DNA from: a virus
Lineage: Duplodnaviria > Caudoviricetes
Reading direction: 5' to 3' (one strand)
Length of the DNA: 58,837 nucleotides
Virus record (IMG/VR): IMGVR_UViG_3300045119_000159
Coordinates: 1 to 58,837 of that record
The translations under genes were made by a program, and so were the position numbers. Below are positions 128-57,715 of this stretch, one piece after another (the first letter of the stretch is position 1; each line of letters begins with the position of its first letter). A model generated the notes under the pieces. It searched no databases. It was not told the DNA's origin and was given only the letters and a program-made list of their open reading frames with translations.

Positions 128-234
128 CAGACCTCCTCGTCGGCTGCCTCGATGTAGAACAGGATGGCCTTCTCGGTTGTCCGGCGGACCTCGCCGTCGA
201 AGCCAAGATACTCGCGGTCGCTCACAGCTCTCAC
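40..234 (-). CDS. Small hypothetical phage protein
   Basis: Coupled to helicase stop; phage-like motif TTEKAILF...EVWLPLSQV...VPRWLAVEKGL. Confidence 0.75.
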   Translation of the reverse strand: MRAVSDREYLGFDGEVRRTTEKAILFYIEAADEEVWLPLSQVELSDDETSVLVPRWLAVEKGLT

Positions 235-1118
235 GCTTCCTCCGCCCCATACCGCTTGAAAACCCCCGCCGCAGGCTCAACCCGAACAAAAACCCCAGCC
301 TCCCACATCAGCAGGATTTTCTGGTCAGATGGGCCGTAATTGCTTTTTTTGGTCTCGAACACCAAACCCATTTCCGCGTGGTGATACAGATACCAGCGAG
401 CCCTGACGCTGTTGTTCCACGCGACGTTGCCACTCTCCCCGGAACCGCTCGCGCGTCCCGCCAGCGACGGGTGCTTCGTCACAATCACCACACCCTGGAT
501 CAGCATCGCGAGCCGCCGCAACTCGCTGATGTACTGCATGACCTGACGTTCGTCGTTCTGATTGCCATCAAATGTCTGCGTCGCCGTGTCAACAATCAGA
601 TAACTCACCCCGCAATCCCGGCATTGGTCGCTCACCTCGCGCAGCAGCCGGGTCGGCTTCATCTGCCAAGTCACACGGTCCAAACGGCACAGCGCGTTAT
701 CCTGCCCGACACGAGGGCTCAACATCAGGCCACCCTCGGCAAAATCGTCCATCTCCATCCCAAGGTCCCGACCGATCGAGAATTGCCGCCGCCACAACTC
801 GTCGTAATCGTCCTCGCAGGCAATCATCAGCGCCCGGCCCGGCAAGACGCTCATCCCCAACCACGCCCGTCCTACCGCAGCGCTCGAACACAACTGCTGC
901 ATCAACAGGCTCTTGCCAATCCCGCCATCGCCCGATACCAGCGCCACCGTACCCCGCAGAAACGCATTCTCAACCATCCACTCCCGCCTTGGCGGCTGCT
1001 TCCCCTGCCACCTGGCCGGCGATACCGCCCTGAATATCCGATCATCAGCTACTAACCTTTCCGCCGGACGCCCCCGCGCCTCCGCTGTCATCAGCCGCTT
1101 CCACTTCCTCGCGCTCAC
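231..1118 (-). CDS. AAA_25/RepA-like replicative helicase (SF4-related ATPase)
   Basis: Walker A GDGGIGKS, EDD motif, Walker B LIVD, HP...SGESGNVAWNNSVR, KSNYG. Confidence 0.9.
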   Translation of the reverse strand: MSARKWKRLMTAEARGRPAERLVADDRIFRAVSPARWQGKQPPRREWMVENAFLRGTVALVSGDGGIGKSLLMQQLCSSAAVGRAWLGMSVLPGRALMIACEDDYDELWRRQFSIGRDLGMEMDDFAEGGLMLSPRVGQDNALCRLDRVTWQMKPTRLLREVSDQCRDCGVSYLIVDTATQTFDGNQNDERQVMQYISELRRLAMLIQGVVIVTKHPSLAGRASGSGESGNVAWNNSVRARWYLYHHAEMGLVFETKKSNYGPSDQKILLMWEAGVFVRVEPAAGVFKRYGAEEA

Positions 1119-3786: not shown

Positions 3787-4188
3787 ATGCCCCGAAAGGC
3801 CAAAGACCCTATCCCGTATGATCCGCCGCGTAAGCACCTCTCGGATTTAATGCTACGGGAGGGGCTTGATTTTGCTTCCCTGTCTGCCATGATCGGGCGA
3901 AATGCATCGTACGTTCAGCAGTACATGAAATACGGCAAGCCTCGAAATTTGCCGGAACGGGAGCGGGAAGCCTTGGGACAGCTATTTAAGGTAGATCCAG
4001 ACATTTTTCGCCAAAACTATCGACCGAGGGACGCTCAGAGCGAGTTGCTGGCCCTCTATGAGAGAGTGCCGGAAGAGCGGCAAGACGAGTTTCTGGAACT
4101 GGTGCGCCAAGCCGCGCGGCTCGCCACACCCGAACGGGCGGTCCCTACACGGCCAGGGCACCCGCGCCGCGCGGGAGTCAAAAATTAA
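3787..4188 (+). CDS. CI-like repressor, HTH without an S24 peptidase domain
   Basis: FASLSAMIGRNASYVQQYMKYGKPRNL resembles alphaproteobacterial repressor N-termini; flanked by operators. Confidence 0.8.
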   Translation: MPRKAKDPIPYDPPRKHLSDLMLREGLDFASLSAMIGRNASYVQQYMKYGKPRNLPEREREALGQLFKVDPDIFRQNYRPRDAQSELLALYERVPEERQDEFLELVRQAARLATPERAVPTRPGHPRRAGVKN

Positions 4189-4245
4189 CCAATATTTTTG
4201 AACTGGCGCGTTTAGCGACCCGTTAGCCATAAATATTTTCAGCCG

Positions 4246-4289
4246 ATAGGCGAAATCCTATTGACCGATAGGAAATAGCCTATTAAGCT
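4246..4289 (+). promoter_or_regulatory. Operator pair plus PL-like promoter
   Basis: ATAGGcgaaatCCTAT 4246-4261 and ATAGGaaatagCCTAT 4268-4283; TTGACC(4261)-N17-TAAGCT(4284). Confidence 0.8.
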
Positions 4290-4319
4290 CCCTCTCATCG
4301 AGACACAGAGAGGGGCGCG

Positions 4320-4622
4320 ATGCCGAGCACCGCCGCATCAGACGAAGCGCTGCAAGCCGCTGAAGAATTGCTCAGCGACGAGTGCGCGCCGGAATTGTCG
4401 AATGGCGAGCACGACTGGCTGAAGCACAACATCGCGCGGCTTTGCGACTGGTTTGCCGCTGAAACCCCGACCGAAGAGTTCGACCGCCTGCTCCGCGAAG
4501 CCGCCGAATACCGCGAGGGCATCTTCGCCACGCACCGCTGCTGGCGCTGCAATCACGGCGAGAAGGCGTGCGTCCAATTCGACCCGCATCGCTGCGACTA
4601 TCCCCGCGCACTTAATGATTGA
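4320..4622 (+). CDS. Hypothetical protein with Cys-rich C-terminus
   Basis: First ORF after the PL-like promoter, GAGGGG RBS, CWRC...C...C. Confidence 0.7.
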   Translation: MPSTAASDEALQAAEELLSDECAPELSNGEHDWLKHNIARLCDWFAAETPTEEFDRLLREAAEYREGIFATHRCWRCNHGEKACVQFDPHRCDYPRALND

Positions 4623-4726
4623 GGTCACAGATGGGCCGCTTGGGGTATTGGAACGCTCATTCTGACCGCGATTGGGAAGATCAATGCGGCATGTATGACG
4701 AACCCGAGCCAGAGGAGGAAGAGCCG

Positions 4727-4963
4727 ATGGACGATGTTGTGATTGACGGTCGCCAGTCCGTAACACTGAAAGACGCGCTGGATCTATTCGGTGCGTTCGA
4801 GGCGGCGCTCGACAAACAAATCTACCCGCAGCAGGAAGCCCAAAACTACGAGCCACCCGATAGCTGGACATACACCATCAACCTAACCGCCGCGCAATGG
4901 CAGCAATACAGCGCGGCGATGGCTCTGCTGGAGAGGCTGTGCGGGACGGGAGTGACACCATGA
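4727..4963 (+). CDS. Hypothetical protein
   Basis: 3' part of ORF 4619-4963, GAGGA RBS before MDDVV; coupled to the next gene. Confidence 0.55.
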   Translation: MDDVVIDGRQSVTLKDALDLFGAFEAALDKQIYPQQEAQNYEPPDSWTYTINLTAAQWQQYSAAMALLERLCGTGVTP

Positions 4964-5568
4964 GCGCAATCGATCTATCGCCTGCAATCGATCTAGCGCC
5001 TTTTTGCGGCACGGACAAAGAAAGAGGGCGGGGTGTTGCGAGTGAGGGCGGCCCCGGTACGATGGTCATATTTGGCCTTAAAAATCATGATCAACCATTC
5101 TCGCGCGGCGACTACACCTACGCGACGAACGGGCACGTTATCGTCAGAGTGCCCCGGCGAGATGAGGTGCCAGAACAGCCGAAAGCGCCCCTCACTGTTG
5201 GTGCGGTGTTTTATAAGATCGACGCCTCCTTGCCGTTCCGCAGAATCCCACGTTACGAAATCCCGGAAGCAAAGAAATCGCCGTGCATTCACTGCTTCGA
5301 CGGTTTTCAGCATGACTGTCCCAACTGCGAATGCGAATGTGAAGAATGCGACGGCACCGGCACTGAAATTGAACTGATATCGGTAGCTCTCGGCCCAGCG
5401 ATTTTGGCGGCTCAATACGTCAAACTGCTGCAAACACTGCCGGATATCAAGATTGCTGTTGGGTCTGATAGGAATAGACCAATGCACTTCACCTTTGATG
5501 GCGGTGACGGACTGCTAATGCCGATGTCGCGCCCTTATGATACGCACGTTAAGGAACCAACATCATGA
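4960..5568 (+). CDS. Hypothetical phage protein with DnaJ-like Zn finger; beta-clamp-like segments
   Basis: YATNGH motif, CxxCxxG and CEECDGTG, C-terminal FDGGDGLLMPM. Confidence 0.75.
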   Translation: MSAIDLSPAIDLAPFCGTDKERGRGVASEGGPGTMVIFGLKNHDQPFSRGDYTYATNGHVIVRVPRRDEVPEQPKAPLTVGAVFYKIDASLPFRRIPRYEIPEAKKSPCIHCFDGFQHDCPNCECECEECDGTGTEIELISVALGPAILAAQYVKLLQTLPDIKIAVGSDRNRPMHFTFDGGDGLLMPMSRPYDTHVKEPTS

Positions 5569-5771
5569 GGACTCTCGACCAAGTATTTACTGCTGCCACC
5601 AGCAAAGAAACGGCGCTGCGCCAGTTGCGCGCCAGGCTCAGTGAACTCGATGCCGAGGCCGAGAAGCTGCGCCTGAAGCGGATGAAATTATACGATAACA
5701 TTCAGTTGTTCGCCCAAGGCCGAATCAGCTTTGAGGCCGCAACAAGATGCCTTAGTCGGATAGTGCGATGA
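5565..5771 (+). CDS. Hypothetical coiled-coil protein
   Basis: Coupled overlaps (ATGA) at both ends. Confidence 0.7.
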   Translation: MRTLDQVFTAATSKETALRQLRARLSELDAEAEKLRLKRMKLYDNIQLFAQGRISFEAATRCLSRIVR

Positions 5772-6568
5772 AACTCGGCCTCACAGACGAGCAGCTCCAA
5801 GAAAGACGCCGTGGAATAGGTGGCAGTGACGCCGCGAAGATCATGGGCGGTATGTGGCATGAACTGTGGCTCGACAAAACGGGACGTTCCGAGCCAGAGG
5901 ATCTGTCGCGCGTCCTCGCCGTCCAGATGGGCTTGTTCACCGAACCGCTGAACATCTTCTGGTTCGAGCGCGAGACCGGCCATAAGGTTTTCGGGCGCGG
6001 CGAGGTCTACCGTCACCCGGATTACGATTTCATCCGATGCACCCTCGATGGGCTGACGCTTATCAAAAGCAGACCGGCGATCATCCAGGCGAAGCATGTA
6101 TCGGCGTTCTCTAAGATCGAGGAAATCGAGCAGCGCTACTATCCGCAAGTTGCACATGAAATGCTCGTCACGGGATCGTCCCTCGCGTTCCTCTCTGTTT
6201 TCCTTGGCACTCAGAAGTGGGAATGCGTTGAGATCCAAAGGGACCGAGAATATACTACGCGACTACTGGAATACGAACAGGAATTTTGGGGTTACGTGAC
6301 GCGCGATGAACCGCCGCCGCAACCCGAAGCGGTTCCGATACCGGCTCGTCCAGCAGTCTACCGAACGGTGGACATGAGCGGGTCGAACGTCTGGTGCGAT
6401 TTCGCGGTCGATTGGCTGGAGAACCAGGGTGCCGCGAAGAAGTATGACAAGGCGGCCAAGGAGTTGCGCGCGATGGTCGAGCCCGATGTCGGGCACGCCT
6501 TCGGCAAGGGCGTGGCGGTGAAGCGCAGTAAGGACGGAAAGCTGTTTATATCGGGGGCTGCAAAATGA
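5768..6568 (+). CDS. YqaJ-like viral recombinase exonuclease
   Basis: RRRGIGGSDAA, G...EP, CTLDG, QAK, YYPQV motifs. Confidence 0.92.
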   Translation: MKLGLTDEQLQERRRGIGGSDAAKIMGGMWHELWLDKTGRSEPEDLSRVLAVQMGLFTEPLNIFWFERETGHKVFGRGEVYRHPDYDFIRCTLDGLTLIKSRPAIIQAKHVSAFSKIEEIEQRYYPQVAHEMLVTGSSLAFLSVFLGTQKWECVEIQRDREYTTRLLEYEQEFWGYVTRDEPPPQPEAVPIPARPAVYRTVDMSGSNVWCDFAVDWLENQGAAKKYDKAAKELRAMVEPDVGHAFGKGVAVKRSKDGKLFISGAAK

Positions 6569-7290
6569 TCCAGACCAGCGAACAAATCGACGCTATCTCA
6601 GCCGCGCTAGTGAAGGCGCAAGCTGACATTGAGAACATCGCTAAGACCGGGAAAAATCCTCACTTCAAGTCGAGCTACGCCACCTTGGCGGACGTGCTCG
6701 ACGAACTGCGCCCGAAGTTTGCCAAGCACGGCATCTACATCATGCAGGCGGCCATCAACGGCGAGGGCGCGACCATCGGCGTCTCAACACGGCTTCTGCA
6801 TTCGTCAGGGCAGTGGATCGAGAGCACGCTGTACGTCGCGCCCATCAAATTCGACGCGCAAGGTGCTGGATCAACCGTAACTTATTTGCGTCGATATGGG
6901 CTCATGGCGATGGCTGGGGTTGGCGCAGAAGACGACGATGGCGAGGCTGCTGTCGGTCGCCCACAAGCCCCAGCGCGCACTAACGGCGCGACCCGCACCG
7001 CATCGGCCCCGCCGACGCCAGCGCCCCTGAACAAAGCCGCTCTGCCGCCGAGCCCCGAGGAAACCCCGGAGGTCACGGCGGCGCGCCAGCGCATCCGCAT
7101 GCTGATCAATAAGATTGACGCAATGATCAAATCCGCGCCGAACGATCACGTTCTGTCGGTCGGGATGGATGATGCTCTTGACGAATTCAAGGAGATCGAG
7201 GCGGCTGGCGAGAATGGCAAGAAAGCCGCTGACGAGCTGCGTGAGAGATACAATGAGCGCATGGCGACGCTCCGAGAGCAGGCAGCATGA
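6565..7290 (+). CDS. erf: ERF-family ssDNA annealing protein
   Basis: NPHFKSSYATL, GSTVTYLRRYGL...EDDDG. Confidence 0.93.
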   Translation: MIQTSEQIDAISAALVKAQADIENIAKTGKNPHFKSSYATLADVLDELRPKFAKHGIYIMQAAINGEGATIGVSTRLLHSSGQWIESTLYVAPIKFDAQGAGSTVTYLRRYGLMAMAGVGAEDDDGEAAVGRPQAPARTNGATRTASAPPTPAPLNKAALPPSPEETPEVTAARQRIRMLINKIDAMIKSAPNDHVLSVGMDDALDEFKEIEAAGENGKKAADELRERYNERMATLREQAA

Positions 7291-7790
7291 ACGCGCCATC
7301 GGTCCCTTGTGCTTGGGAGGGCGACTGCTTTCGCCCGTTGCCCCGATTTAGGAAACTCTGCGATCAAACATTCGTCGTTGGCGAGACTTACCGGCTCGAA
7401 ACGGTCGAGGAGAGATCAATGCTCTCACACCGTCACTATTTCTCCTGCATAGCGGAGGTTTGGCAAAATCTGCCGCCCGCCGCCGCCGAACGGTTTGCGT
7501 CCCCTGAGCATTTACGGAAATGGGCTCTCGTGAAGGCTGGCTTCCGTGACGAGCGCTCGTTCGTCTGCGCGTCGAAGGCGGAAGCATTGCGTCTCGCTGC
7601 CTTCCTGCGCCCGGTTGATGAGTTTGCTGTCGTCAGCGTCAACGGTGCTGCTGTGGTGATGCTGACGGCCAAGAGCCAGAATTTGCGCTCGATGGATCGG
7701 AAGACGTTCGGGGCCAGTAAGAACGCTGTCCTCGAGGTGCTCGCCGATCTGATCGGAGTGTCGCCTGCACAGCTTGGGAGAGCGGCATGA
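7287..7790 (+). CDS. Conserved phage recombination-region protein (NinB/DUF1367-like)
   Basis: RSMLSHRHYF...WQNLP...EHLRKWAL...KSQ...M; follows erf. Confidence 0.7.
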   Translation: MNAPSVPCAWEGDCFRPLPRFRKLCDQTFVVGETYRLETVEERSMLSHRHYFSCIAEVWQNLPPAAAERFASPEHLRKWALVKAGFRDERSFVCASKAEALRLAAFLRPVDEFAVVSVNGAAVVMLTAKSQNLRSMDRKTFGASKNAVLEVLADLIGVSPAQLGRAA

Positions 7791-7929
7791 GAGATCATGA
7801 GGCTGGCGCAATAGCTATGCTGGCTTGGATGGTAGCCGAGCTAACACAGAAGTATGGCGTCTCAATGAAGCGCTTCAGCGAGGTCGTGCGGGAAGCGAAG
7901 AAGATGCAGCGGGAGAAGGCTAAGCCGCG

Positions 7930-8190
7930 ATGATACGGAAGCACCTACGCCAACAAGTTTTCGAGCGTGATGGCGGTGCGTGCCGGCGGTGTCGGCTTTA
8001 CGACTCTAAATGGGAGGCCGACCATATTGTTGAATTGTGGGAGGGCGGCAAGGATGTCCTCGACAATATGCAAACACTCTGCCGGCGGCATCATCGGGAC
8101 AAAACATCAGACGCCACGCCCGTCCGCGCTAAGACAGACAGGCTACGGGCAAGAGAAGATTTAACCAAAAAACGTCGGGAAATACGATGA
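7930..8190 (+). CDS. HNH endonuclease
   Basis: VFERDGGACRRC...ADHIVELWEGG...NMQTLCRRHH. Confidence 0.9.
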   Translation: MIRKHLRQQVFERDGGACRRCRLYDSKWEADHIVELWEGGKDVLDNMQTLCRRHHRDKTSDATPVRAKTDRLRAREDLTKKRREIR

Positions 8191-8408
8191 TGGCTGACCG
8201 AGAAGAGATACTAACGGAAGCATTGCACAAAATCCTGCAATGGAGCGAAGCCTACCCGCTAGAGATTTTCCGCGAACCCGATTGGGCGAAGGCACGGGCA
8301 TTGCTCGCAGCGGGCGGCGTATCGCTCGATGCGGTCAGCGGCGCTTGCTGTCGGCGCGTTGTCGAAGGCATCGGCGACATCGCGCGCCAAGCATTGGAGG
8401 AATCATAA
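8187..8408 (+). CDS. Hypothetical protein
   Basis: WSEAYPLEIF motif; coupled to neighbours. Confidence 0.7.
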   Translation: MMADREEILTEALHKILQWSEAYPLEIFREPDWAKARALLAAGGVSLDAVSGACCRRVVEGIGDIARQALEES

Positions 8409-8905
8409 TGGCGCTGCCGATAACGGCGAACATTCGGCAGTTCACGCAAATCTCGGGGCTAGGCAAAACCAGCATTTACGAGCTTATCAATTCCGGCCAG
8501 GTGGAATCCGAATTTGTGAGCGGGCGACGGCTAATCAAGGTCGCGTCCTACATGGAGTTAATTCGCGCATCTTTGGACAGCGTGACGCCGCCGCGCCTGC
8601 GAGCCGAAAAGAGCCGCAGGGTAAAAAAGAGCCGCAGAAAAATGACAACCCGAAACAGCTTTGTCTATTTCATGGGCGGAGATGATGGCTATGTAAAAAT
8701 CGGCTTTTCAAACAATCCCCATAAACGGTTGAGAGGCGTGCAAATAGGCTCCGCCTCGCCAGTGCGTCTACTCGCTATGCTTCGCGGCGACCGAAATGAC
8801 GAAGATAGCCTACATAAGCGATTTGCTGCTTACCGCGTTCGTGGCGAATGGTTTCGCTTTGAGGGAGAGTTCAAGGAATATGTGGAGGGCCTTCCCCATG
8901 AGTAA
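8408..8905 (+). CDS. Xis/AlpA-like HTH fused to a GIY-YIG (T5orf172-like) domain
   Basis: ISGLGKTSIYELI...GRRLI; VYFM...VKIGFS...RL..Q...E..LHKRF...RGEWF; GGAGG RBS before 8408. Confidence 0.85.
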   Translation: MALPITANIRQFTQISGLGKTSIYELINSGQVESEFVSGRRLIKVASYMELIRASLDSVTPPRLRAEKSRRVKKSRRKMTTRNSFVYFMGGDDGYVKIGFSNNPHKRLRGVQIGSASPVRLLAMLRGDRNDEDSLHKRFAAYRVRGEWFRFEGEFKEYVEGLPHE

Positions 8906-9143
8906 TATGGAATTCGTACCCACCACCGTCACGGTTGAACAGTTCGGCAAAATCTCGCAACTCGGCAAAACAACGATCTATAAAATGATAAAGCGTGGCG
9001 ACCTTAACTCGGTCAGAGTCTATGGGCGTCGATTGATTGTCGTTCAATCATATTTTGATTTTGTAACTCGGGAGACAGCGGCGGAGATGCGGGCGCTGAC
9101 TTCCGCCACCGTTCGTGATCGTTCACGGCAAGCCGCTAAATAA
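8898..9143 (+). CDS. Excisionase-like HTH protein
   Basis: ISQLGKTTIYKMIKRGDL...GRRLI; directly abuts the att-like region. Confidence 0.8.
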   Translation: MSNMEFVPTTVTVEQFGKISQLGKTTIYKMIKRGDLNSVRVYGRRLIVVQSYFDFVTRETAAEMRALTSATVRDRSRQAAK

Positions 9144-9144
9144 G

Positions 9145-9382
9145 GATGGGAGAAACGATGGGTGAAACGATATTTGGCCTCATAAGGCATTGTAATTTCT
9201 ATGATCGTCCCGGTCATCTTCTCCGGGAACCCTGGTCCGTAACCGACCGCAACAGACCACTTCGCTAGGGAAGCCGCTATAATCTTATCTTCCTATCGTT
9301 CGCATCAACCCGCAACAGCCCGCATCAAACCGCCTCCCAATGATGGGAGAAATGATGGGAGAGGACATCAGATGAGAGAAAC
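9145..9382. other. attP-like recombination site
   Basis: 12-bp arm-type repeats GATGGGAGAAAY at 9145, 9157, 9342, 9354, 9371 (variants); IHF-like TAAGGCATTGTAA 9183-9195; 10-bp direct repeats 9301-9333. Confidence 0.65.
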
Positions 9383-9617
9383 CTCAGGGACGCTCCTGAT
9401 CGACGGCAAGGAGGTTATATGGGACCGGATGTCGTCAACCGGACTTGCCATTCACCCGGGCAGCGGTGATGTCATCCATCTCGGCGGCGAACCGGACGAA
9501 GAACGCATCCGGTGCGCGCTTGCGGGCTGGAATCAAGGATATGCCGCCGGTAAGCAGGTCGGCCGCTCAACCCTGCAAAACGAGTTCCGCAACCTGATGG
9601 ACTGCCAGCCCCGCTAG
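9372..9617 (+). CDS. Hypothetical protein
   Basis: ATG with GAGGA RBS. Confidence 0.6.
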   Translation: MRETSGTLLIDGKEVIWDRMSSTGLAIHPGSGDVIHLGGEPDEERIRCALAGWNQGYAAGKQVGRSTLQNEFRNLMDCQPR

Positions 9618-9664
9618 TCTGCCCATCCACGCCCATGATACCGAACCGCATTTGGAGAGTTCCA

Positions 9665-10261
9665 ATGATACGTCCCTTAATCGCCGCCCTCCTGCTAGGC
9701 AGCATCCTGACGCAGCCAGCCGCCGCGACCGTCACGTTCAGCTTCATGGAAACCGGAACCCTCAATGACTGCTTCATCGGCCCGTGTGGGCTTCAACTCC
9801 TGAGAACGCCGCGCGAACTCATGAGCATCACGCTATCCAGCGGCACAGAGACGGGCGAGGCCGAATCCAACGGGACCATGTTCGGCAACACCCCTCCACC
9901 CGTGGTCACAGACCCGAACTTCAGTTTCTTGGGTCCTGGTGGCGCTATCGAGGCGGGGATCGGCCCCGTACCTTTCTTCGAGTACGGGGTTTTCTACGAC
10001 ATGCACTGGGTTGCCGTCGCGGGGCAACTGACATACCTCTCCCTAATCTATGATAACTCGCTCAACGAATCGAGCTTCTCGAATTTCGGCCTCACCGGCG
10101 GTCTGGCTATCCGAGACCAGGGATGCGCCCTCACCCCGAACTGCCAGGTTACCGGGTTCTGGACCGACCCGCGATCGGACCCAATTCCCGAGCCAGGATC
10201 GCTAGCGCTTCTGCTGAGTGCGTTGCTGTTGGGTGGTGGAATTGTGTTTCGCCGGGCCTAA
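9665..10261 (+). CDS. PEP-CTERM sorted surface protein
   Basis: Signal peptide MIRPLIAALLLGSILTQPAAA; C-terminal IPEPGSLALLLSALLLGGGIVFRRA. Confidence 0.9.
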   Translation: MIRPLIAALLLGSILTQPAAATVTFSFMETGTLNDCFIGPCGLQLLRTPRELMSITLSSGTETGEAESNGTMFGNTPPPVVTDPNFSFLGPGGAIEAGIGPVPFFEYGVFYDMHWVAVAGQLTYLSLIYDNSLNESSFSNFGLTGGLAIRDQGCALTPNCQVTGFWTDPRSDPIPEPGSLALLLSALLLGGGIVFRRA

Positions 10262-10545
10262 ATCTTGACCCCTGCTCTGCGAGCAAGATCGACGAGTATC
10301 TGCTTCTGTTGCCCGATCCAGACCGCGCTCGCTGGATCAGCGGCTAGTCTGGCGATGCCCTCCGCCGAGAAGCATGCTACTTGAAGACCGATGGCTATAA
10401 CCCCTGCGGCTGGAATTGCCCCGGCGACCGCTAGGACAGGGCGGGCGTCCTCGCAAGCCACCGTGATGGCATCTGAGGATGCGGTAAGCTGAGCCGCCGA
10501 GCACGAACCCAGCAGCAAAGATGCAACTAGAGCCGTTGCTCGCAT
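10258..10545 (-). CDS. Lipoprotein, possible spanin, at end of lysis cassette
   Basis: MRATALVASLLLGSC lipobox. Confidence 0.65.
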   Translation of the reverse strand: MRATALVASLLLGSCSAAQLTASSDAITVACEDARPVLAVAGAIPAAGVIAIGLQVACFSAEGIARLAADPASAVWIGQQKQILVDLARRAGVKI

Positions 10546-10801
10546 AGGATTGCCTCTTTGTTTCGGGGGTGAAGTGGGGTAGGGTTTTTGCATGCCTCAT
10601 TACGATCATTTCGCGCAAGACCTACAGTTCGTAGTTTGCCTCTTCGCCATTTATATCGGCGCTCTCTATGCCTGGATCAGACTGTGGGACTGGTGGCATC
10701 GCGAGAGCGACGAATTTGATGATCGCAGCACGATGTAAATCGCATTTCCGGGTAGGGCCGCGCGAGGCAGCCCTCCCATCCATGTGCTGTCCCCTTGGCG
10801 A

Positions 10802-11347
10802 TTACGGGCCGGGGTTGGTCGGAACCGGCTGCGTGGCCGAGGTGACGTTGGCGAGATCGAGGCCGATTGCCGTAGCTTTCGTATCCGAAACGATATCAAC
10901 CATTTCAGTGAACGCCTTCAGGCCAGCGCTGTCGGAGACCGTAAATGACAGCCCCGGCGATACCTGCACCAGAGCATTGAGCACCACGGCGGGATTGCCT
11001 CCCGCGTCCGTGCCCATGACGGCATTGAGGCTCGCGGGGTTGTTGCTGACAACGCTGAAGGTATCGGCGGGATCGGCCTTTTCCACGGTCCCAGCGTCAT
11101 CGAGCACGAGGATGGTGATGGTATCGACGGCATCGTTCATCAATTGTAGATTTGCCACTAGTTTGCCCTTTCGGTAGATGGTTGGTAGTGCCAAAGCGAT
11201 CCTTGTCGCCTTGCTTATCTGGGCGGGGGTGTTTGATTGGCACCACTGCCAGATGCGGTTAACCTCATCTAAGATCGCCTCGTCATTGGATTCGATACGG
11301 GAGAGCCACGGATAGAGACCGGAGATCCATCTCATGAGCCATTCCAT
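10802..11347 (-). CDS. Hypothetical lysis-region protein with beta-rich C-terminal domain
   Basis: In the late operon after the holin-like gene; likely start MEWLMR. Confidence 0.7.
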   Translation of the reverse strand: MEWLMRWISGLYPWLSRIESNDEAILDEVNRIWQWCQSNTPAQISKATRIALALPTIYRKGKLVANLQLMNDAVDTITILVLDDAGTVEKADPADTFSVVSNNPASLNAVMGTDAGGNPAVVLNALVQVSPGLSFTVSDSAGLKAFTEMVDIVSDTKATAIGLDLANVTSATQPVPTNPGP

Positions 11348-11351
11348 AGGT

Positions 11352-11744
11352 TCACCGGGGATTTTTGACGATCGGGATTTCCGTGGTAGCGTCAACCGTG
11401 TGGATGTTGTCAGAGAGCGGCTGAACTATTGCCGTCTGCTGGAGTTCTATGGCAGCAGGCGTTGGTACGCTGACGACGCTGGCCCCCACCGGCACATCCA
11501 CGGGCGCGGGAACGCTGACCGGCCCTGTAATGCTAACAGGGCCTGTTGGAAACCACAGGCGCAACGCCACCGTCGCTATCGCATCAAGCGTGCCGATTAG
11601 CTGTTCTTGCTGACCCGGCGTATCGAGCAGATGCCATCCTGCCGCGCTCGCGATCATCGCCGCAAGCGTGACCATTTGCGTCCAGAAAATCTTGCTCGCA
11701 AACAGGCTCTTGACGAATTGAATCTTAGCGGGAGCGTCGTTCAT
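11352..11744 (-). CDS. Holin-like membrane protein
   Basis: KSLFASKIFW...TM...IATVALRL pattern; next to the endolysin. Confidence 0.65.
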   Translation of the reverse strand: MNDAPAKIQFVKSLFASKIFWTQMVTLAAMIASAAGWHLLDTPGQQEQLIGTLDAIATVALRLWFPTGPVSITGPVSVPAPVDVPVGASVVSVPTPAAIELQQTAIVQPLSDNIHTVDATTEIPIVKNPR

Positions 11745-11850
11745 AGCAGATACCTGAGAGCCTTTCCTAGATCCCAGAGGGCTTCGCCGAAGAACCAGAC
11801 AAATGTGCCGCCCATTATGGCTCCAGCGGTCAAATATCCGGCGGCACGTC

Positions 11851-12507
11851 TCACGCTGCCTTACCACTGAGGTCGGCGATCGTCCGCTCGATGTCTGCGG
11901 TATGGTCGCGCAATAGCTGCGCCACCAAGTCAGCGACAGGCTTTGTCATGGTTACAGTAACCATGCTGGTAGCTGGTACGGGCGTCGGCGTGACAACAGG
12001 CGTCGGGTCTGGCATGGGAACTCCGGGTTGTGGCGCAGCCTTGTATCCGGTGAGCGCGCGGTTTGCCCATTGCAGCCGCCGGTCATTGCCGGGCAGAAAC
12101 GTATCGGTGGTGCCGCCGGGAGCCTCGAACATGACGCCAAATGTGAACACGGCTGAATCGAGCGCCGTGGTCTTTTTCAGTTGCTCAAGGTCGTGCGCGT
12201 GGCTGGTGCGTAGTTCGTTTACGAGGTAGCCGTAATTTGCCTCGTCGGAACGCTGGTCGAGCTTCTGTGCGGCGCACCACGCCTCGAAGGCACGGCGGCG
12301 AGGACCGGTCCACTGAGCCCAACCCCACCCGCCTGATGGCGGCGTCTGCCCAACCTCTTGAAGCGTCTCGAAACCTGAACTCTCAAATCCGAGGTTGCCG
12401 ACGATGCCGGCGGCTTGCTCTGGCGTAAGACCAAACTCTTTGATCAGCGCGCCGACAACCCAGCCGCCACGCACCTCAAAGGAAGCGGGACGCGGCGGCA
12501 TATCCAT
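11851..12507 (-). CDS. Endolysin, Phage_lysozyme2 (tail-tip lysozyme) family
   Basis: QAAGIVGNLGFESSG, GWGWAQWTGPRR, FEAP motifs. Confidence 0.88.
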   Translation of the reverse strand: MDMPPRPASFEVRGGWVVGALIKEFGLTPEQAAGIVGNLGFESSGFETLQEVGQTPPSGGWGWAQWTGPRRRAFEAWCAAQKLDQRSDEANYGYLVNELRTSHAHDLEQLKKTTALDSAVFTFGVMFEAPGGTTDTFLPGNDRRLQWANRALTGYKAAPQPGVPMPDPTPVVTPTPVPATSMVTVTMTKPVADLVAQLLRDHTADIERTIADLSGKAA

Positions 12508-12508
12508 C

Positions 12509-12751
12509 TCAGTAGACCCACTCCAAAGGAATCTTGACGATCTGCCCCACATAGATCCGGTCTTTGTCCTTGATGTCAGGATTCAGTTCCAGGATCTCAC
12601 CCACCCTGCTAGCCACCTCATCGGCAGGGCATTCAGTCATTCCCTGAGCGATTGCAGATAGCGTATCGCCCTTTCGGATGACCACAGTGGCAGCATCCTT
12701 GTCAGCGGCAATGATGTGCGCCCATTCGAGAACTTCGTGAAAGAAACTCAT
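12509..12751 (-). CDS. LysM-domain protein
   Basis: VIRKGDTLSAIA...ILELNPDIKDKDRIYVGQIVKIP. Confidence 0.85.
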   Translation of the reverse strand: MSFFHEVLEWAHIIAADKDAATVVIRKGDTLSAIAQGMTECPADEVASRVGEILELNPDIKDKDRIYVGQIVKIPLEWVY

Positions 12752-12878
12752 GATTTGCCTCCCTACAGTGTCATTGACCAAGCGACACATGCCGCTAGGA
12801 TGATGACGGCCACAATCAATATCCAGCTGTGGCCGCGATTGATGATCCTCGCCGAGCGTGCCGCTCTGGTGCGGCGGC

Positions 12879-13040
12879 TCACCCGCGTAAGGCCGGCATG
12901 AAGATGTAGAGCCCGAGGAACAAGACCGCCAGCCACAGCAATCCGCCGTGTGCATACGGCCACTGTGAAGCGGGGCCATTCGGGAAGACCGTAATCAACG
13001 TGAGCAGCATGATGACTGCCCAAAGAACTTCAAGAATCAT
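12879..13040 (-). CDS. Small two-TM membrane protein (53 aa, below ORF-track cutoff)
   Basis: MILEVLWAVIMLLTLITVFP...LLWLAVLFLGLYIFMPALRG; GGAGG RBS. Confidence 0.65.
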   Translation of the reverse strand: MILEVLWAVIMLLTLITVFPNGPASQWPYAHGGLLWLAVLFLGLYIFMPALRG

Positions 13041-44850: not shown

Positions 44851-45399
44851 GTGATACGCTCTGTTGCGATGACATCCGAAGAATGGCGTCCCGTTGAAGG
44901 CTGGCCTTACGAGGTCAGCAACCTTGGTCGCGTGCGGCGAGCGGCTGATGCAGTTCTTTGGAACGGCGCAATCGCGTTTCCGAAAGGGTACGTGCTACGT
45001 CCGAGACCGCATAAGGCTGGATATCAGACAGTCAGCTTATGCGCTGGCGGTCGGCCGAAAGGATTCCTCATAAGTCGGCTAGTTTGCACTGCATTCAACG
45101 GTGCGCCGCCATCGGTCGAGCACGAAGCGGCCCATTGGGATGGTGACAAGACCAACAACCGTGCGACTAACCTGCGGTGGGCCACTGGCGTTGAAAACGC
45201 TGCGGACAAAATTCGCCATGATCGCGTGTCGCGAGGTAGCCGCCAGGGCCGCGCTAAACTCACCGAGTCAAATGTGATCGAGATCCGAGCCCTGATCGCC
45301 GCCGGCGTTCCGCAGCGACAGATCGCTAAACGCTTCGGCGTCACCAAATCGCCGATTAACGAAATCCACCGAGGACGCGCATGGTCCTGGCTCACGTAG
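44851..45399 (+). CDS. NUMOD4-HNH homing endonuclease
   Basis: EEWRPV..YEVSNLGRVR; AAHWDGDKTNN...NLRW...EN; C-terminal HTH. Confidence 0.9.
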   Translation: MIRSVAMTSEEWRPVEGWPYEVSNLGRVRRAADAVLWNGAIAFPKGYVLRPRPHKAGYQTVSLCAGGRPKGFLISRLVCTAFNGAPPSVEHEAAHWDGDKTNNRATNLRWATGVENAADKIRHDRVSRGSRQGRAKLTESNVIEIRALIAAGVPQRQIAKRFGVTKSPINEIHRGRAWSWLT

Positions 45400-53651: not shown

Positions 53652-54047
53652 ATGATGATCAGATGCGCCAAATGCGGGGAGGATCACCACCTTGCGTGGC
53701 AATGCCGTTATGCGCCCGAAATCGCCGCTCGTAAGCTCGCGCAGCTTCAAGGCAAGACGATGGTTCGAGAGCCGGCCGCTTCGTTACCCTCTCGTCGGAC
53801 AGAACCAGAGGCAGGAAAGCCCTCTGACTCCCGGCCAGTTGCGCAGAGGGCTCGAAGGGCTCAAAATGCTCGCCTTCAAGAGCCCGCCAACCAGCAAACC
53901 CTCTCTGCAGAGGGAGTGGCGTCTTTACGGGCCAACGTGGTTGAGACCAAGAGCGTGGGAGCATTTAATCGCGCGGCGTACCAAAAAGCCTACATGAAAA
54001 CGTACATGCCGAAATGGCGCGCCAGACAGAAGGCTGCTAAGACTTAG
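53652..54047 (+). CDS. Hypothetical protein with Zn knuckle and basic C-terminal helix
   Basis: CAKCGEDH...C; FNRAAYQKAYM..WRAR. Confidence 0.65.
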   Translation: MMIRCAKCGEDHHLAWQCRYAPEIAARKLAQLQGKTMVREPAASLPSRRTEPEAGKPSDSRPVAQRARRAQNARLQEPANQQTLSAEGVASLRANVVETKSVGAFNRAAYQKAYMKTYMPKWRARQKAAKT

Positions 54048-54082
54048 CAACGTGCTAAGACTTAACAGGATGCTAAGACTTA
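54035..54082. repeat. Three TGCTAAGACTTA direct repeats, 18-bp period
   Basis: Copies at 54035, 54053, 54071. Confidence 0.9.
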
Positions 54083-54549
54083 TCCTTCCCCCCATGCAGC
54101 ACAGCCAGCAACGCTAGAGCCAGCTTAGAGCCGTCCGTTTCAGGGATCAGCTCCTTGCCGCCGGCTCCTACAAGCTCCGTGCGGTCGCCGTATTTCTTCG
54201 GCAACAGCTTAGATGCGACCCATTTCCGAGCGTCCACACGGAGCCGGGAGCGATTGATGTGCTCTTGATTGGCGACAACCACCGTATCGTCGCCCTGCTG
54301 CCGAAGCATCCAATCGTTCCGAGCATCGTCGGAAATCTCAATTATCTCAGCAGCATAACGCTCGGCCTGAACCTCACGCGCCTGCGCGTATTTCTCGCGG
54401 AACGCGTCATTTTTTGCAATCCAGCGATAAACCGTAGCCTCATCAGGGAATTCATCCTTATCGCAAAGCTCGCGTAATGAGAACCCTGCGATGAGCTTTT
54501 GGCAGATTTCCTCGGCAATCTCGTCTGAATATGAGCTGAAGCGACCCAT
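54073..54549 (-). CDS. terS: Terminase small subunit (Sf6 gp1-like)
   Basis: MGRFSSYSDEIAEEIC...SLRELC...F...YAQAR...RSRLRVDARKW..SKL.PKKYGD. Confidence 0.9.
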   Translation of the reverse strand: MGRFSSYSDEIAEEICQKLIAGFSLRELCDKDEFPDEATVYRWIAKNDAFREKYAQAREVQAERYAAEIIEISDDARNDWMLRQQGDDTVVVANQEHINRSRLRVDARKWVASKLLPKKYGDRTELVGAGGKELIPETDGSKLALALLAVLHGGKDKS

Positions 54550-54746
54550 CAGCCCTTCCCGATGTTTGGATATCGCCGATGCACAGCGGCGCGGACCTTG
54601 GCTTTTTCCTCGGGAGTGCCATTTGCCGAGACTCTTGAGAGGGCGTCTCGGGCGTGAGCGGCGTCGTGGATCGGATATCTGCGCCCAGGCAAAGCAAAAG
54701 CGCTGGCGGGCAGATCCTTGCGCGTCGCACTCATCAATACCGCCAT
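54549..54746 (-). CDS. DUF6582-like small protein
   Basis: RKDLPASAFALPGRRYPIHDAAHARDAL. Confidence 0.75.
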   Translation of the reverse strand: MAVLMSATRKDLPASAFALPGRRYPIHDAAHARDALSRVSANGTPEEKAKVRAAVHRRYPNIGKG

Positions 54747-54843
54747 TGCACCCCCAACGCAAAAGCGCGCCGAGATTGCTCTGGGCGCGCGTAGTTCTAA
54801 TCGCTAGGCGCTTGTGGCAGGTTTCGTGTGACGCGTCAAGCGG

Positions 54844-56537: not shown

Positions 56538-56585
56538 GCGCCGTCGCTTCCCCATACCAAACACGGCAGACAAAGAGGAATTGAG

Positions 56586-56813
56586 ATGATCGCGAAAATC
56601 ACCAAGGCTTACGTCCGGCACTACAGCGACAATGGCCAAACCAAGGCTTATGTCGAGTGGATCGACCACAAAGGGCAAGCCGGCCGCACCGAAGCCGACA
56701 TCACCAGCCGGCCAGAGGACGGCGTGATGTCTGAGGTTTACGGCGCTCATATGGGTGCGCTCATGGCGCGCGCTATCTGCACTGGCGTCACCATCGACCG
56801 CGAGACTTTGTAG
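56586..56813 (+). CDS. Hypothetical protein
   Basis: GAGGA RBS; YSDNGQTKAYVEW..GRTE. Confidence 0.8.
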   Translation: MIAKITKAYVRHYSDNGQTKAYVEWIDHKGQAGRTEADITSRPEDGVMSEVYGAHMGALMARAICTGVTIDRETL

Positions 56814-56849
56814 AGGCGTCCCCACCAACACGGCAGCAGGAGAAACCAG

Positions 56850-57065
56850 ATGACCATTACCAGCCAATTCGATCTCACCTTCGCCACCCAAGCCGAAGCG
56901 GCTGATTTCTTCGCCGCGCTCGACTATCGGCGGCTCCCCGTTCGCCAAGAAACCTATGCGGCGCAAGGCCGCAACGATGATGGTCTCGCCATCGTCACGT
57001 TCGCCCGCCGCAATCTCGTTGATGATGAAGGTCTGCATTTTCACTTTTCAGAAGTGAATCGCTGA
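56850..57065 (+). CDS. Hypothetical protein
   Basis: Follows repeat with GGAG RBS. Confidence 0.7.
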   Translation: MTITSQFDLTFATQAEAADFFAALDYRRLPVRQETYAAQGRNDDGLAIVTFARRNLVDDEGLHFHFSEVNR

Positions 57066-57066
57066 G

Positions 57067-57258
57067 ATGGATAACACCGAAGGCTCTGACGCTCACCTGA
57101 TCGCCGCCGCGCCGGAGCTGTATGCGGCGCTGAAGTTCGTTTTCGAGCACATCGCCGACAAAGAGCGAGGACCGCGCGATCTTTATCCAGCTTTCGGCTT
57201 GGACGCACAGCGCGTAATCGAGATGGCGCGCGCCGCGCTCGCCAAAGCGCGAGGCTAG
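57067..57258 (+). CDS. Hypothetical phage protein
   Basis: AHLIAAAPELYAAL...AALAKA motif. Confidence 0.7.
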   Translation: MDNTEGSDAHLIAAAPELYAALKFVFEHIADKERGPRDLYPAFGLDAQRVIEMARAALAKARG

Positions 57259-57292
57259 TCCCCACCAACACGGCAGCCCACGGAGAGATCAG

Positions 57293-57559
57293 ATGCGGAT
57301 GTTCGACGCGCTGAAAGCCGACGCCGAGAAGCTGCGCGCTCTGACCGGCGAAACGCAGTCGTTCATGATTTCCTGCGACGATTGCGGTGGTGAAGGCGGC
57401 TACGAAGTGGCTTACGCCGCGACCTCGAAATGGGGCGACCCAACGCCCGGCGGCGAATGGATCGAATGCCCCACCTGTCACGGCTCGGGCTGGCTCGACA
57501 ACCACGAACCAGAACCGCCCCTCGATCCCGACGAAATATTTCCGCCGTTCTCTGACTAG
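57293..57559 (+). CDS. Zn-finger (CxxCxGxG) protein
   Basis: CDDCGGEG and CPTCHGSG. Confidence 0.75.
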   Translation: MRMFDALKADAEKLRALTGETQSFMISCDDCGGEGGYEVAYAATSKWGDPTPGGEWIECPTCHGSGWLDNHEPEPPLDPDEIFPPFSD

Positions 57560-57592
57560 CCCCACCAACACAGCAACCCACGGAGAGATCAG

Positions 57593-57715
57593 ATGACCCG
57601 TTTCCGCATGGACAACACCAAAGGCTACAGCGCTGCCGAACTTTCCGAACTCAATGCAGCATGGGAGGAAATCATTGCGGCCGCCAATGTCGTCATCTCC
57701 AGATCACAAGGATGA
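57593..57715 (+). CDS. Small hypothetical protein (40 aa)
   Basis: MTRFRMDNTKGYSAAELSELN after the fourth repeat. Confidence 0.6.
   Translation: MTRFRMDNTKGYSAAELSELNAAWEEIIAAANVVISRSQG

Follow-up and report, generated by a model that had tools for sequence, protein, structure and literature searches.

The attP site of phage lambda spans about 240 bp, with its arm-type sites split two plus three, a site for the integration host factor (IHF) beside the P arm, and the excisionase Xis encoded next to it. In the integrative and conjugative element (ICE) ICEMlSymR7A, attP is 283 bp long and contains five IntS arm-type motifs (consensus TGKTGGTATC), all of which are required, and RdfS binds attP upstream of intS (PMC11963761). 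Attachment sites without an integrase of their own have also been described: cis-mobilizable elements (CIMEs) and site-specific accretion tandems are reported to carry att sites that rely on the integrase of a neighboring element (PMC5704250, PMC13651849). Here we analyzed a stretch of viral DNA of 58,837 nucleotides (Duplodnaviria; Caudoviricetes; IMG/VR record IMGVR_UViG_3300045119_000159, positions 1 to 58,837), which is called the window below, and in particular an element at 9118-9382 that directly follows two related excisionase-like genes. Our favored, still tentative reading is that this element represents an orphan attP for a heterobivalent tyrosine integrase (P4/IntS type) and that it works, together with the directionality-factor-like genes beside it, by means of an integrase provided in trans. 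What the site is can be regarded as well supported. How it would be used where no integrase gene exists is not, and an integrase acting in trans is the best, as yet unproven, mechanism.

The element is built around 12-bp units in two clusters. Allowing at most one mismatch, we found four copies of the 12-mer GATGGGAGAAAY in the whole 58,837 bp, at 9145, 9157, 9342, and 9371, all of them within 9145-9382; 0.62 copies would be expected, and none of 100 shuffled sequences reached four. A fifth unit, at 9354, retains the 9-base core GATGGGAGA, and the two plus three units together span 238 bp (9145-9382). The distal cluster (9145-9168, plus strand) consists of two head-to-tail units, GATGGGAGAAAC and GATGGGTGAAAC, and is read as the P-arm pair of arm-type sites. 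The proximal cluster (9342-9382, plus strand) has three units, at 9342, 9354, and 9371, read as the P'-arm sites, and an inverted copy, CTCCCA-ATGA-TGGGAG, lies ahead of it at 9335-9350. Tandem Repeats Finder reported tracts at 9145-9171 (period 12, 2.2 copies), 9339-9362 (period 12, 2.0 copies), and 9301-9333 (period 10, 3.3 copies). Sequence and conserved offset together point to an IHF-like site at 9183-9195 (minus strand; TAAGGCATTGTAA on the plus strand), which on its minus strand has two mismatches to the E. coli consensus WATCAANNNNTTR; the lowest-GC stretch of the element coincides with it. A short inverted repeat, CCCGG-N-CCGGG, at 9209-9232 (no strand assigned) marks a candidate core region. 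A second repeat family is represented by ATCGTTCACGGCAAGCCGC at 9118-9136 (plus strand; family D5 of the repeat search), which lies in the 3' end of the gene at 8898-9143 and has a partner at 9295-9313 with 79% identity. Pattern search and Tandem Repeats Finder also gave four plus-strand copies of CGCAWCARMC within 9248-9330, one at 9248 and three in tandem at 9301, 9311, and 9321 with a 10-bp period; there are seven matches in the genome against 1.74 expected, and four of the seven lie here. These 10-bp repeats are possibly sites for one or more excisionase-like proteins. The preliminary description of this stretch had reported repeats in two arms, an IHF-like site, and 10-bp repeats directly after two related genes, and this observation is confirmed.

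The same build was found in other soil phage contigs. A profile search with the helix-turn-helix (HTH) protein encoded before the element retrieved 15 metagenome and 7 viral loci. We set aside three distant homologues (L020, L022, and L023, which belong to tRNA-linked islands where an integrase gene, one further gene, the HTH gene, and a primase/helicase gene follow one another), two distant viral homologues that lack the cassette (L029 and L030, 31% and 38% identity), two loci truncated in the gene (L019 and L021), one that ends before the second cluster (L013), and one that is the contig of L015 (L027). In all 15 remaining loci (11 metagenome and 4 viral), the build 3' of the HTH gene is the same. 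With the window included, the cassette loci form at least nine sequence groups (W, A, B, C, D, E, F, G, and H), and the HTH proteins of the other groups are 35 to 64% identical to that of the window. The unit period is 12 in every group except F, where it is 11 and 12, and within each group both clusters have the same unit type. The gap between the last distal and the first proximal unit is 185, 185, 186, 186 or 196, 197, 197, 197, 198, 198 bp in 10 of 11 elements; group F, with extra units, is the exception. The classes of 185-186 and 196-198 bp differ by about one helical turn, and the two clusters are helically phased. In 8 of 9 groups there is a motif TAA-N4-(T/C/A)TG-N-AA, IHF-like on the minus strand; its start lies 26 to 29 bp beyond the second distal unit in seven of them (W, A, B, C, E, G, and H), the eighth being F. 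With the exception of F, the GC content of the next 40 bp drops to 0.15-0.35 in loci of 0.59-0.65. By sequence reading, short inverted repeats lie at a place comparable to that of the candidate core in groups A, C, F/G, and E. The second repeat differs elsewhere, being GTCCGCATACGT in A-D and H and GGTTCGC in E-G. The unit pattern has two, three, and three matches in genomes G005, G006, and G007, all at the cassette, and reversed-pattern controls gave none. A scan of viral contigs for the motif plus the IHF-like site returned 18 matches, the real ones being only three cassette records that were already known.

Several results indicate that the conserved signal lies in the DNA. The distal unit pair is present in all nine groups; it falls within the HTH coding region in five of them (A-D and H) and outside it in the others, beyond the stop codon in W and E. 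No covariation support came from RNAalifold, run on groups A-D and H (term, +1.11; only 2 of 36 pairs compensatory). Because the distal pair lies in or out of the coding region depending on the group, and because there is no RNA covariation, the signal acts at the level of double-stranded DNA. A structured RNA between the clusters was also considered; the region has no Rfam match and no tRNA, and together with the RNAalifold result this rules out such a reading. Phages whose structural genes are unrelated carry the cassette: G004 and G006 are SU10-like, and the window portal has no match in G003-G007, which carry SU10-type portals. In G004 a Cro-like/CI-like gene pair heads the short operon that contains the cassette, which hints at a possible temperate switch.

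Motif scans of the viral collection, with a window-type and an A/B-type double unit, connected the units to integrases of the P4 type. The window-type double unit had three matches, two in coding DNA and the third in L065. In L065/L066 the pair GATGGGAGAAAT GATGGGAGAAGT lies 27 to 50 nt upstream of the gene for a 421-amino-acid integrase with Arm-DNA-bind_3, Phage_int_M, and Phage_integrase domains. This gene adjoins a truncated host yjdM gene, a setting that is attL-like. The 28 nt at 9335-9362 of the window are 92.9% identical to the stretch directly upstream of the L065 integrase gene, and L065 has ahead of that gene a mini open reading frame (mini-ORF), MGEMMGEVRVII followed by a stop, that is similar to a mini-ORF of the window at 9340-9375. 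The A/B-type double unit had 22 matches, most of them in low-complexity coding repeats; two were the known cassette and one was L079. In L079/L090 a P4-type integrase gene has its start codon immediately next to the A/B-type pair, and A/B-type units are also found at the integrase gene of L095.

A broader set of P4-type integrases, the best 80 of 574 relatives, corresponded to 79 distinct loci, 49 of which had at least 238 nt of upstream sequence. A period-12 tandem 9-mer occurs within -160 to +20 of the integrase start in 31 of these 49 loci (with GGG in the unit in 24 of the 31) and in 0 of 49 in each of two control windows inside the integrase gene. G-rich head-to-tail 12-bp units, two or three in number (for example, TGGTGGGGTAGC, ATGTGGGAAAGA, and GTGGGGGAAAC), lie, as a general rule, within about 60 nt of the starts of Arm-DNA-bind_3 integrase genes (31 of 49 loci; L090-L168), and integrases that are 63 to 66% identical have unit types in common. 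Three loci, L144, L142, and L098, are complete modules that have not recombined. In L144 the order is a Phage_AlpA gene (E = 4e-20), a unit pair, 188 nt, a unit pair, and the integrase; the gap between the pairs is 197 in L142 and 208 in L098, and sequence reading shows a perfect WATCAANNNNTTR between the unit pairs of L098. The integrase-bearing modules, with gaps of 188, 197, and 208, can thus be set beside the cassettes, with 185-186 and 196-198 bp. Since the same unit types stand at integrase starts and the complete modules share the geometry, we conclude that the element has the build of a P4/IntS-type attP. The attP-like identity given in the preliminary description therefore stands, on the strength of same-type units abutting P4-type integrase genes (L065, L079/L090, and L095) and of AlpA-attP-int modules with the same geometry (L144, L142, and L098). 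Two further observations concern viral contigs. One viral contig of 15,341 bp (L142 and L143) carries the integrase module with both unit pairs twice, about 5.9 kb apart, and may represent a tandem array of elements at one att site. Five viral contigs (L042, L045, L049, L053, and L056) have another conserved double G-run motif, AATGGGGGGGCTATTGGGGGGGCTGAAGGG followed by CATAACTCATTGAAAATC, with no HTH gene or second cluster nearby.

The two genes ahead of the element are candidate directionality-factor-like partners of the putative orphan attP. The second (8898-9143, plus strand) encodes an 81-amino-acid winged-helix protein that profiles, predicted fold, and homologues mark as similar to excisionases or recombination directionality factors (RDFs). 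It scores 25.6/25.4 bits against HTH_17, under the cut-off of 27, and 22.3 bits against TIGR01764 ("excise"), under the cut-off of 28.8. Its AlphaFold model (predicted local distance difference test score, 79.7) is a winged helix with a long C-terminal helix, and the best compact fold matches are Pukovnik Xis (4j2n; template modeling [TM] score, 0.77-0.79) and BldC (TM score, 0.71-0.77), with E values of about 0.05-0.1. Profile comparison with the PDB gave weak matches to TorI (E = 0.16) and Pukovnik Xis (E = 0.23). Homologues with 44 to 64% identity head the same cassette in other phage contigs. The first gene (8408-8905, plus strand) has an N-terminal HTH_17-like winged-helix domain of about 75 amino acids, which in the six-frame search reached 13.8 bits against the same cut-off of 27, fused to a MUG113/T5orf172 domain (Pfam, E = 8.8e-12 for MUG113 and 4.5e-6 for T5orf172); because of this fusion it is not a plain Xis. 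In L026 the end of a T5orf172-like gene also lies directly upstream of the HTH gene. Neither product of the window matches PF05930 (Phage_AlpA) at E values of 0.01 or less. The two proteins are paralogous (39% identity over 76 amino acids, E = 9e-15).

The genome in which this site lies encodes no integrase that we could detect. The record is closed: it has a direct terminal repeat of 127 bp, and CheckV rates it as 100% complete. Searches of its six frames with PF00589, PF00239, PF07508, PF13356, and PF00665 (rve) gave no candidate for any of the families, and no recombinase was found in Pfam, PHROGs, and NCBIfam scans of about 100 ORFs of the window. The ORF scans with Pfam or NCBIfam likewise contained no Rep, ParA, or protelomerase, and AAA_31 (ParA type) had no match in any of four genomes, G000 (the window), G003, G004, and G006. 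The absence of an integrase and of ParA from a closed genome, as first noted from the ORF translations, is therefore upheld. Five related records, three of which are 100% complete, were searched for most, although not all, of the recombinase families run on the window; PF00589 and PF00239 were found in none of the five and PF13356 in none of six genomes, the window included. In all nine groups, other genes, unrelated and differing between groups, occupy the slot of the integrase, and among the loci of the HTH profile search no group has a close integrase-bearing sister. An attP-type site in a genome without an integrase in cis is thus supported. A recent loss of int, one of the options raised at first, is unlikely because the five related records also lack an integrase and because the slot is filled by other genes in the nine groups.

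Without an integrase gene in the genome, the site has to rely on the integrase of another element. In our proposal, the 12-bp units, two in the distal and three in the proximal cluster, would serve as arm-type sites and be recognized by a P4-type integrase through its N-terminal arm-binding domain, the IHF-like site beside the distal pair would allow bending of the DNA, and crossover would take place in a core situated between the clusters. The excisionase-like proteins would have their candidate sites in the 10-bp repeats. The cognate integrase would come from a resident prophage, a satellite, a tRNA-linked island, or some other element present in the infected cell. The outcome would mainly be integration, or co-integration with the element that supplies the integrase; as a second possibility, the site may bind the resident integrase and divert it. 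The assignment of proteins to repeats, the position of the core, and the very use of an integrase in trans are inferred. That the site still serves a recombinase is argued for by its conservation and phasing in nine diverged groups, by a unit type that is kept across clusters, and by matching integrases in other elements. With less confidence, we suggest a wider picture in which tailed soil phages with unrelated structural modules have permanently outsourced site-specific recombination; they may keep a selected, helically phased P4/IntS-type attP with RDF genes but no integrase, and use or sabotage the integrase of whichever matching prophage, satellite, or tRNA-linked island resides in the cell, leading to integration or co-integration or to a block on the excision and re-integration of the resident element.

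Several results weigh against a working attP. No attL or attR was seen, as all 15 informative loci (11 metagenome and 4 viral) carry both clusters contiguously. Contigs of sequencing runs X1-X3 (soil), aligned to positions 5000-13000, show no joint at 9144-9371, with the limit that contigs drop rare variants; X1 and X2 may be the source samples. The HTH-profile scan of one genome for each of 185,579 species found no prophage copy; it returned only two distant homologues, in tRNA-linked islands of different layout. A comparison of the element with 401 alphaproteobacterial genomes gave chance-level short matches only and no attB candidate, a weak test. The inter-cluster region has no significant likeness, by local alignment, to the junction in L065. 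SU10-like podoviruses, the group to which G004 and G006 belong, are known to us only as virulent phages. In addition, we infer that the units are bound by an integrase rather than by the HTH protein. Part of the paper on ICEMlSymR7A calls its own arm sites "putative" (PMC11963761). An integrase may be borrowed in trans, as suggested at first, but no integrated form came from 15 of 15 loci, from the contigs of three runs, or from the genomes of 185,579 species, and the proposed BLAST-type check for attB in hosts yielded nothing above chance in the 401 genomes. Capsid homologues occur in 68 of these 401 genomes, at 21 to 30% identity, which is uninformative with respect to prophages. The 401 genomes include two flagged as unpublished (G249 and G049), on which none of our conclusions depends. 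A likeness of the core to the yjdM junction of L065, seen by eye (GHLLREPW versus GHLVCPEW), was dropped, as 429 of 500 shuffles scored at least as high, and nothing convincing emerged when the element was inspected, by eye only and with no formal test, for a dif-like XerCD site.

The lack of integrated copies fits the main alternative, one that we consider rather unlikely and yet take seriously, namely, that the cassette comes from an attP-RDF module and is now a control region, working without any integrase. One or more phage winged-helix proteins would bind both clusters head to tail, IHF would bend the DNA, and the resulting loop or filament would set the transcription and translation of the gene or genes that start in the proximal cluster. 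Proteins with an Xis fold are known to regulate through direct repeats, which again speaks against recombination as the present function. In the lytic phage D29, Gp36, which shares 89% identity with the L5 excisionase, acts as a repressor of genes located 3' of GC-rich direct repeats (PMC12266134), and BldC forms head-to-tail multimers on direct repeats (PMC5859096); both cases count against our reading. Three further examples are known. From its sites in attP, RdfS stimulates the transcription of intS (PMC11963761); AlpA works as an antiterminator directly downstream of its own gene (PMC7969949); and in Caulobacter a phage-like cluster is activated from a site far upstream by GafY together with IHF (PMC11150451). 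In 8 of 9 groups, the proximal cluster either overlaps the next gene's start codon or lies directly ahead of it. In group E the cluster stands before the capsid gene, some 35 bp upstream of the consensus promoter TTGACA-N19-TATGAT. The unit type also tracks the variant of the recognition helix, YK going with GG(G/A)GAA and YE with GGGTAG, in what are three classes only. Against such a control region, no sigma-70-type promoter is found inside the element at a consistent position across groups; the promoter-like CAGACC-N19-TATAAT at 9253-9283 of the window is not conserved in the others. Moreover, the same unit types stand beside integrase genes that are accompanied by a different AlpA-type HTH protein (G411 and L144), which points to the integrase as the binder, and two phased clusters with a second repeat family and an IHF site exceed the machinery of the known Xis-like regulators.

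A decaying relic, left on its way out and without present function after an ancestor lost its integrase gene, is very improbable. The filling of the integrase slot by unrelated genes that differ between groups is what a relic would look like, but nine groups whose HTH proteins are 35 to 64% identical keep the unit period, the identity of the units from cluster to cluster, the phasing, and the IHF offset. The cassette is also carried by phages with unrelated structural genes, as the portals of the window and of G003-G007 illustrate, and no close integrase-bearing sister of any group came to light. We give even less credence to a replication origin or partition site, in which a small winged-helix protein would bind iterons or a centromere for a plasmid-like prophage or for lytic replication. 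The arrangement of two repeat clusters about an AT-rich stretch that contains an IHF-like site, a weak fold likeness to TubR (TM score, about 0.42), and the occasional fusion of T5orf172 domains to replication proteins in annotated phages would suit it. However, the ParA-type ATPase is missing from the four genomes and the ORF scans named above, the element lies at a convergent gene junction with the helicase gene 8 kb off in another operon, the integrase-linked occurrences of the same units have no place in such a reading, and an origin could not be derived from GC skew, which across the genome follows gene strand and transcription only. Least credible of all is that the units are duplicated translation starts (Shine-Dalgarno-plus-ATG modules) or a small gene for an M-G-E-x peptide. 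A unit length of 12 nt corresponds to four codons, which translate as M-G-E-x; in A-D, F, and G an ORF runs through the element; and the tail of the proximal cluster resembles the usual gene-start repeat of the phage, GGAGAG..ATCAGATG. A protein-coding element is nevertheless rejected. Its ORF is interrupted in the window and in E, and between F and G it is alike in length but not in its middle sequence; the distal units begin with GTG or GCG as often as with ATG and occupy another frame of the HTH gene; and the helical phasing of the clusters is a property of DNA.

Temperate tailed phages have been assumed to use an integrase of their own, transposition, or a plasmid life. If our reading is true, the cassette would point to a fourth way, a dependence on, or an interference with, the integrases of other mobile elements. 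Lifestyle prediction would then change, as "no integrase" is usually read as virulent, and a new kind of interaction between phages and islands would have to be considered. Even as a reused control region, the cassette would show that a recombination site can turn into a portable regulatory module.

The surroundings of the element were also examined. The mini-ORF MMGEMMGEDIR (9340-9375, plus strand, from sequence reading) has a stop codon that overlaps (ATGA) the start of the next gene. This gene (9372-9617, plus strand) encodes 81 amino acids without a family match, has a 47% identical homologue in L001, and stands in the slot that the integrase occupies in the complete modules. It is followed by a gene for a secreted protein with a weak PEP-CTERM sorting signal, a moron-like passenger (9635-10261, plus strand); against PF07589 the product has E = 0.0016 and 18.9 bits, under the cut-off of 20.7, and comparable postcassette genes in L015 (22.2 bits) and L025 (26.3 bits) are over it. 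A PEP-CTERM gene thus follows the cassette in three groups (window, 9635-10261; L015, 6066-6791; L025, 7082-7870), with proteins that are unlike beyond the sorting signal, which suggests hosts with an exosortase. A gene for a tiny hydrophobic peptide (about 19 to 48 codons, for example, MTSRLEAFLLGLMLAGLALALAI) comes first after the element in A, D, F, G, and H (L015, 5350-5472; L024, L025, L026, and L009); in group D it is ATGA coupled to a mini-ORF, and it is absent from the window.

The phage itself is podovirus-like. A single contig of 58,740 bases from run X2 (soil) spans its genome. Megablast against a phage collection found no close relatives among named phages, and the portal is only distantly related (about 27% identity) to portals of the pelagiphage HTVC010P type. 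The minus strand carries genes for a T7-type portal, tail tube proteins, internal virion proteins, capsid, and terminase. A plus-strand early operon at about 3787-9143 encodes a YqaJ/RecE-like exonuclease, Erf, an NinB-like protein, and an HNH nuclease, with the two Xis-like genes at its end, and a leftward operon contains RusA and an AAA_25 helicase (231-1118, minus strand). This helicase gene is masked by a longer, spurious plus-strand ORF at 12-1055, and choosing ORFs by length alone misannotates several regions of the genome. The 133-amino-acid gene at 3787-4188 reads like a CI-type repressor and has no Pfam match; in the gap 3' of it, a partly palindromic 22-bp repeat (4243-4284, 1.9 copies) is a possible operator. 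A second HNH gene lies at 7930-8190, and a NUMOD4/HNH_3 homing-endonuclease gene (44851-45399) is wedged on the opposite strand beside the portal gene. Three copies of the 18-bp repeat TGCTAAGACTTAACAACA at 54031-54082, at the 3' end of the small terminase gene (54073-54762, minus strand), are possibly a packaging or termination signal. Within 56553-57595, a 36-nt gene-start repeat, CCCCACCAACACGGCAGC...GGAGAGATCAGATG, occurs four times, each time ahead of a small plus-strand gene, and its tail resembles the end of the proximal cluster (9358-9374).

The element can be compared with several described systems. With the attP, IntS, and RdfS module of ICEMlSymR7A from Mesorhizobium, which has a P4-type integrase (PMC11963761), it shares an attP of about 240 to 280 bp with five G-rich arm-type repeats (the group E units are GTGGTGGGTA and ATGGTGGGTA), a small winged-helix protein, in the ICE a directionality factor that binds within attP, and an alphaproteobacterial host range; in the ICE, however, intS directly follows attP and rdfS is far away, whereas in the phage the RDF-like genes directly precede the site and there is no integrase gene. 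CIMEs and accretion tandems are likewise reported to have att sites without an integrase of their own, but these are chromosomal remnants or ICE/phage tandems in streptococci, and here the free attP is part of a complete tailed-phage genome. Mycobacteriophage D29 Gp36 and Streptomyces BldC have an Xis/MerR-like fold similar to the one predicted here and bind direct repeats cooperatively, regulating without recombination (PMC12266134; PMC5859096), but they do so at single clusters at promoters, without paired phased clusters and an IHF site and without a link of the repeat type to integrase genes. The AlpA-attP-int modules of L144, L142/L143, and L098 have the same orientation and period and the same succession of a small HTH gene, a 12-bp unit pair, 188 to 208 bp, and a second unit pair. 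They differ in that an Arm-DNA-bind_3 integrase follows 40 to 60 nt after the proximal pair and in that their HTH protein is Phage_AlpA (PF05930), whereas the proteins of the window match only HTH_17, and that weakly. Finally, the element resembles lambda attP in size, in the two-plus-three split of the arms, in the IHF-like site by the P arm, and in the adjoining gene for a protein with a predicted Xis-like fold. In lambda, int lies between xis and attP; in the phage, the units are in tandem in both arms and the Xis-like genes lead directly into a site without int.

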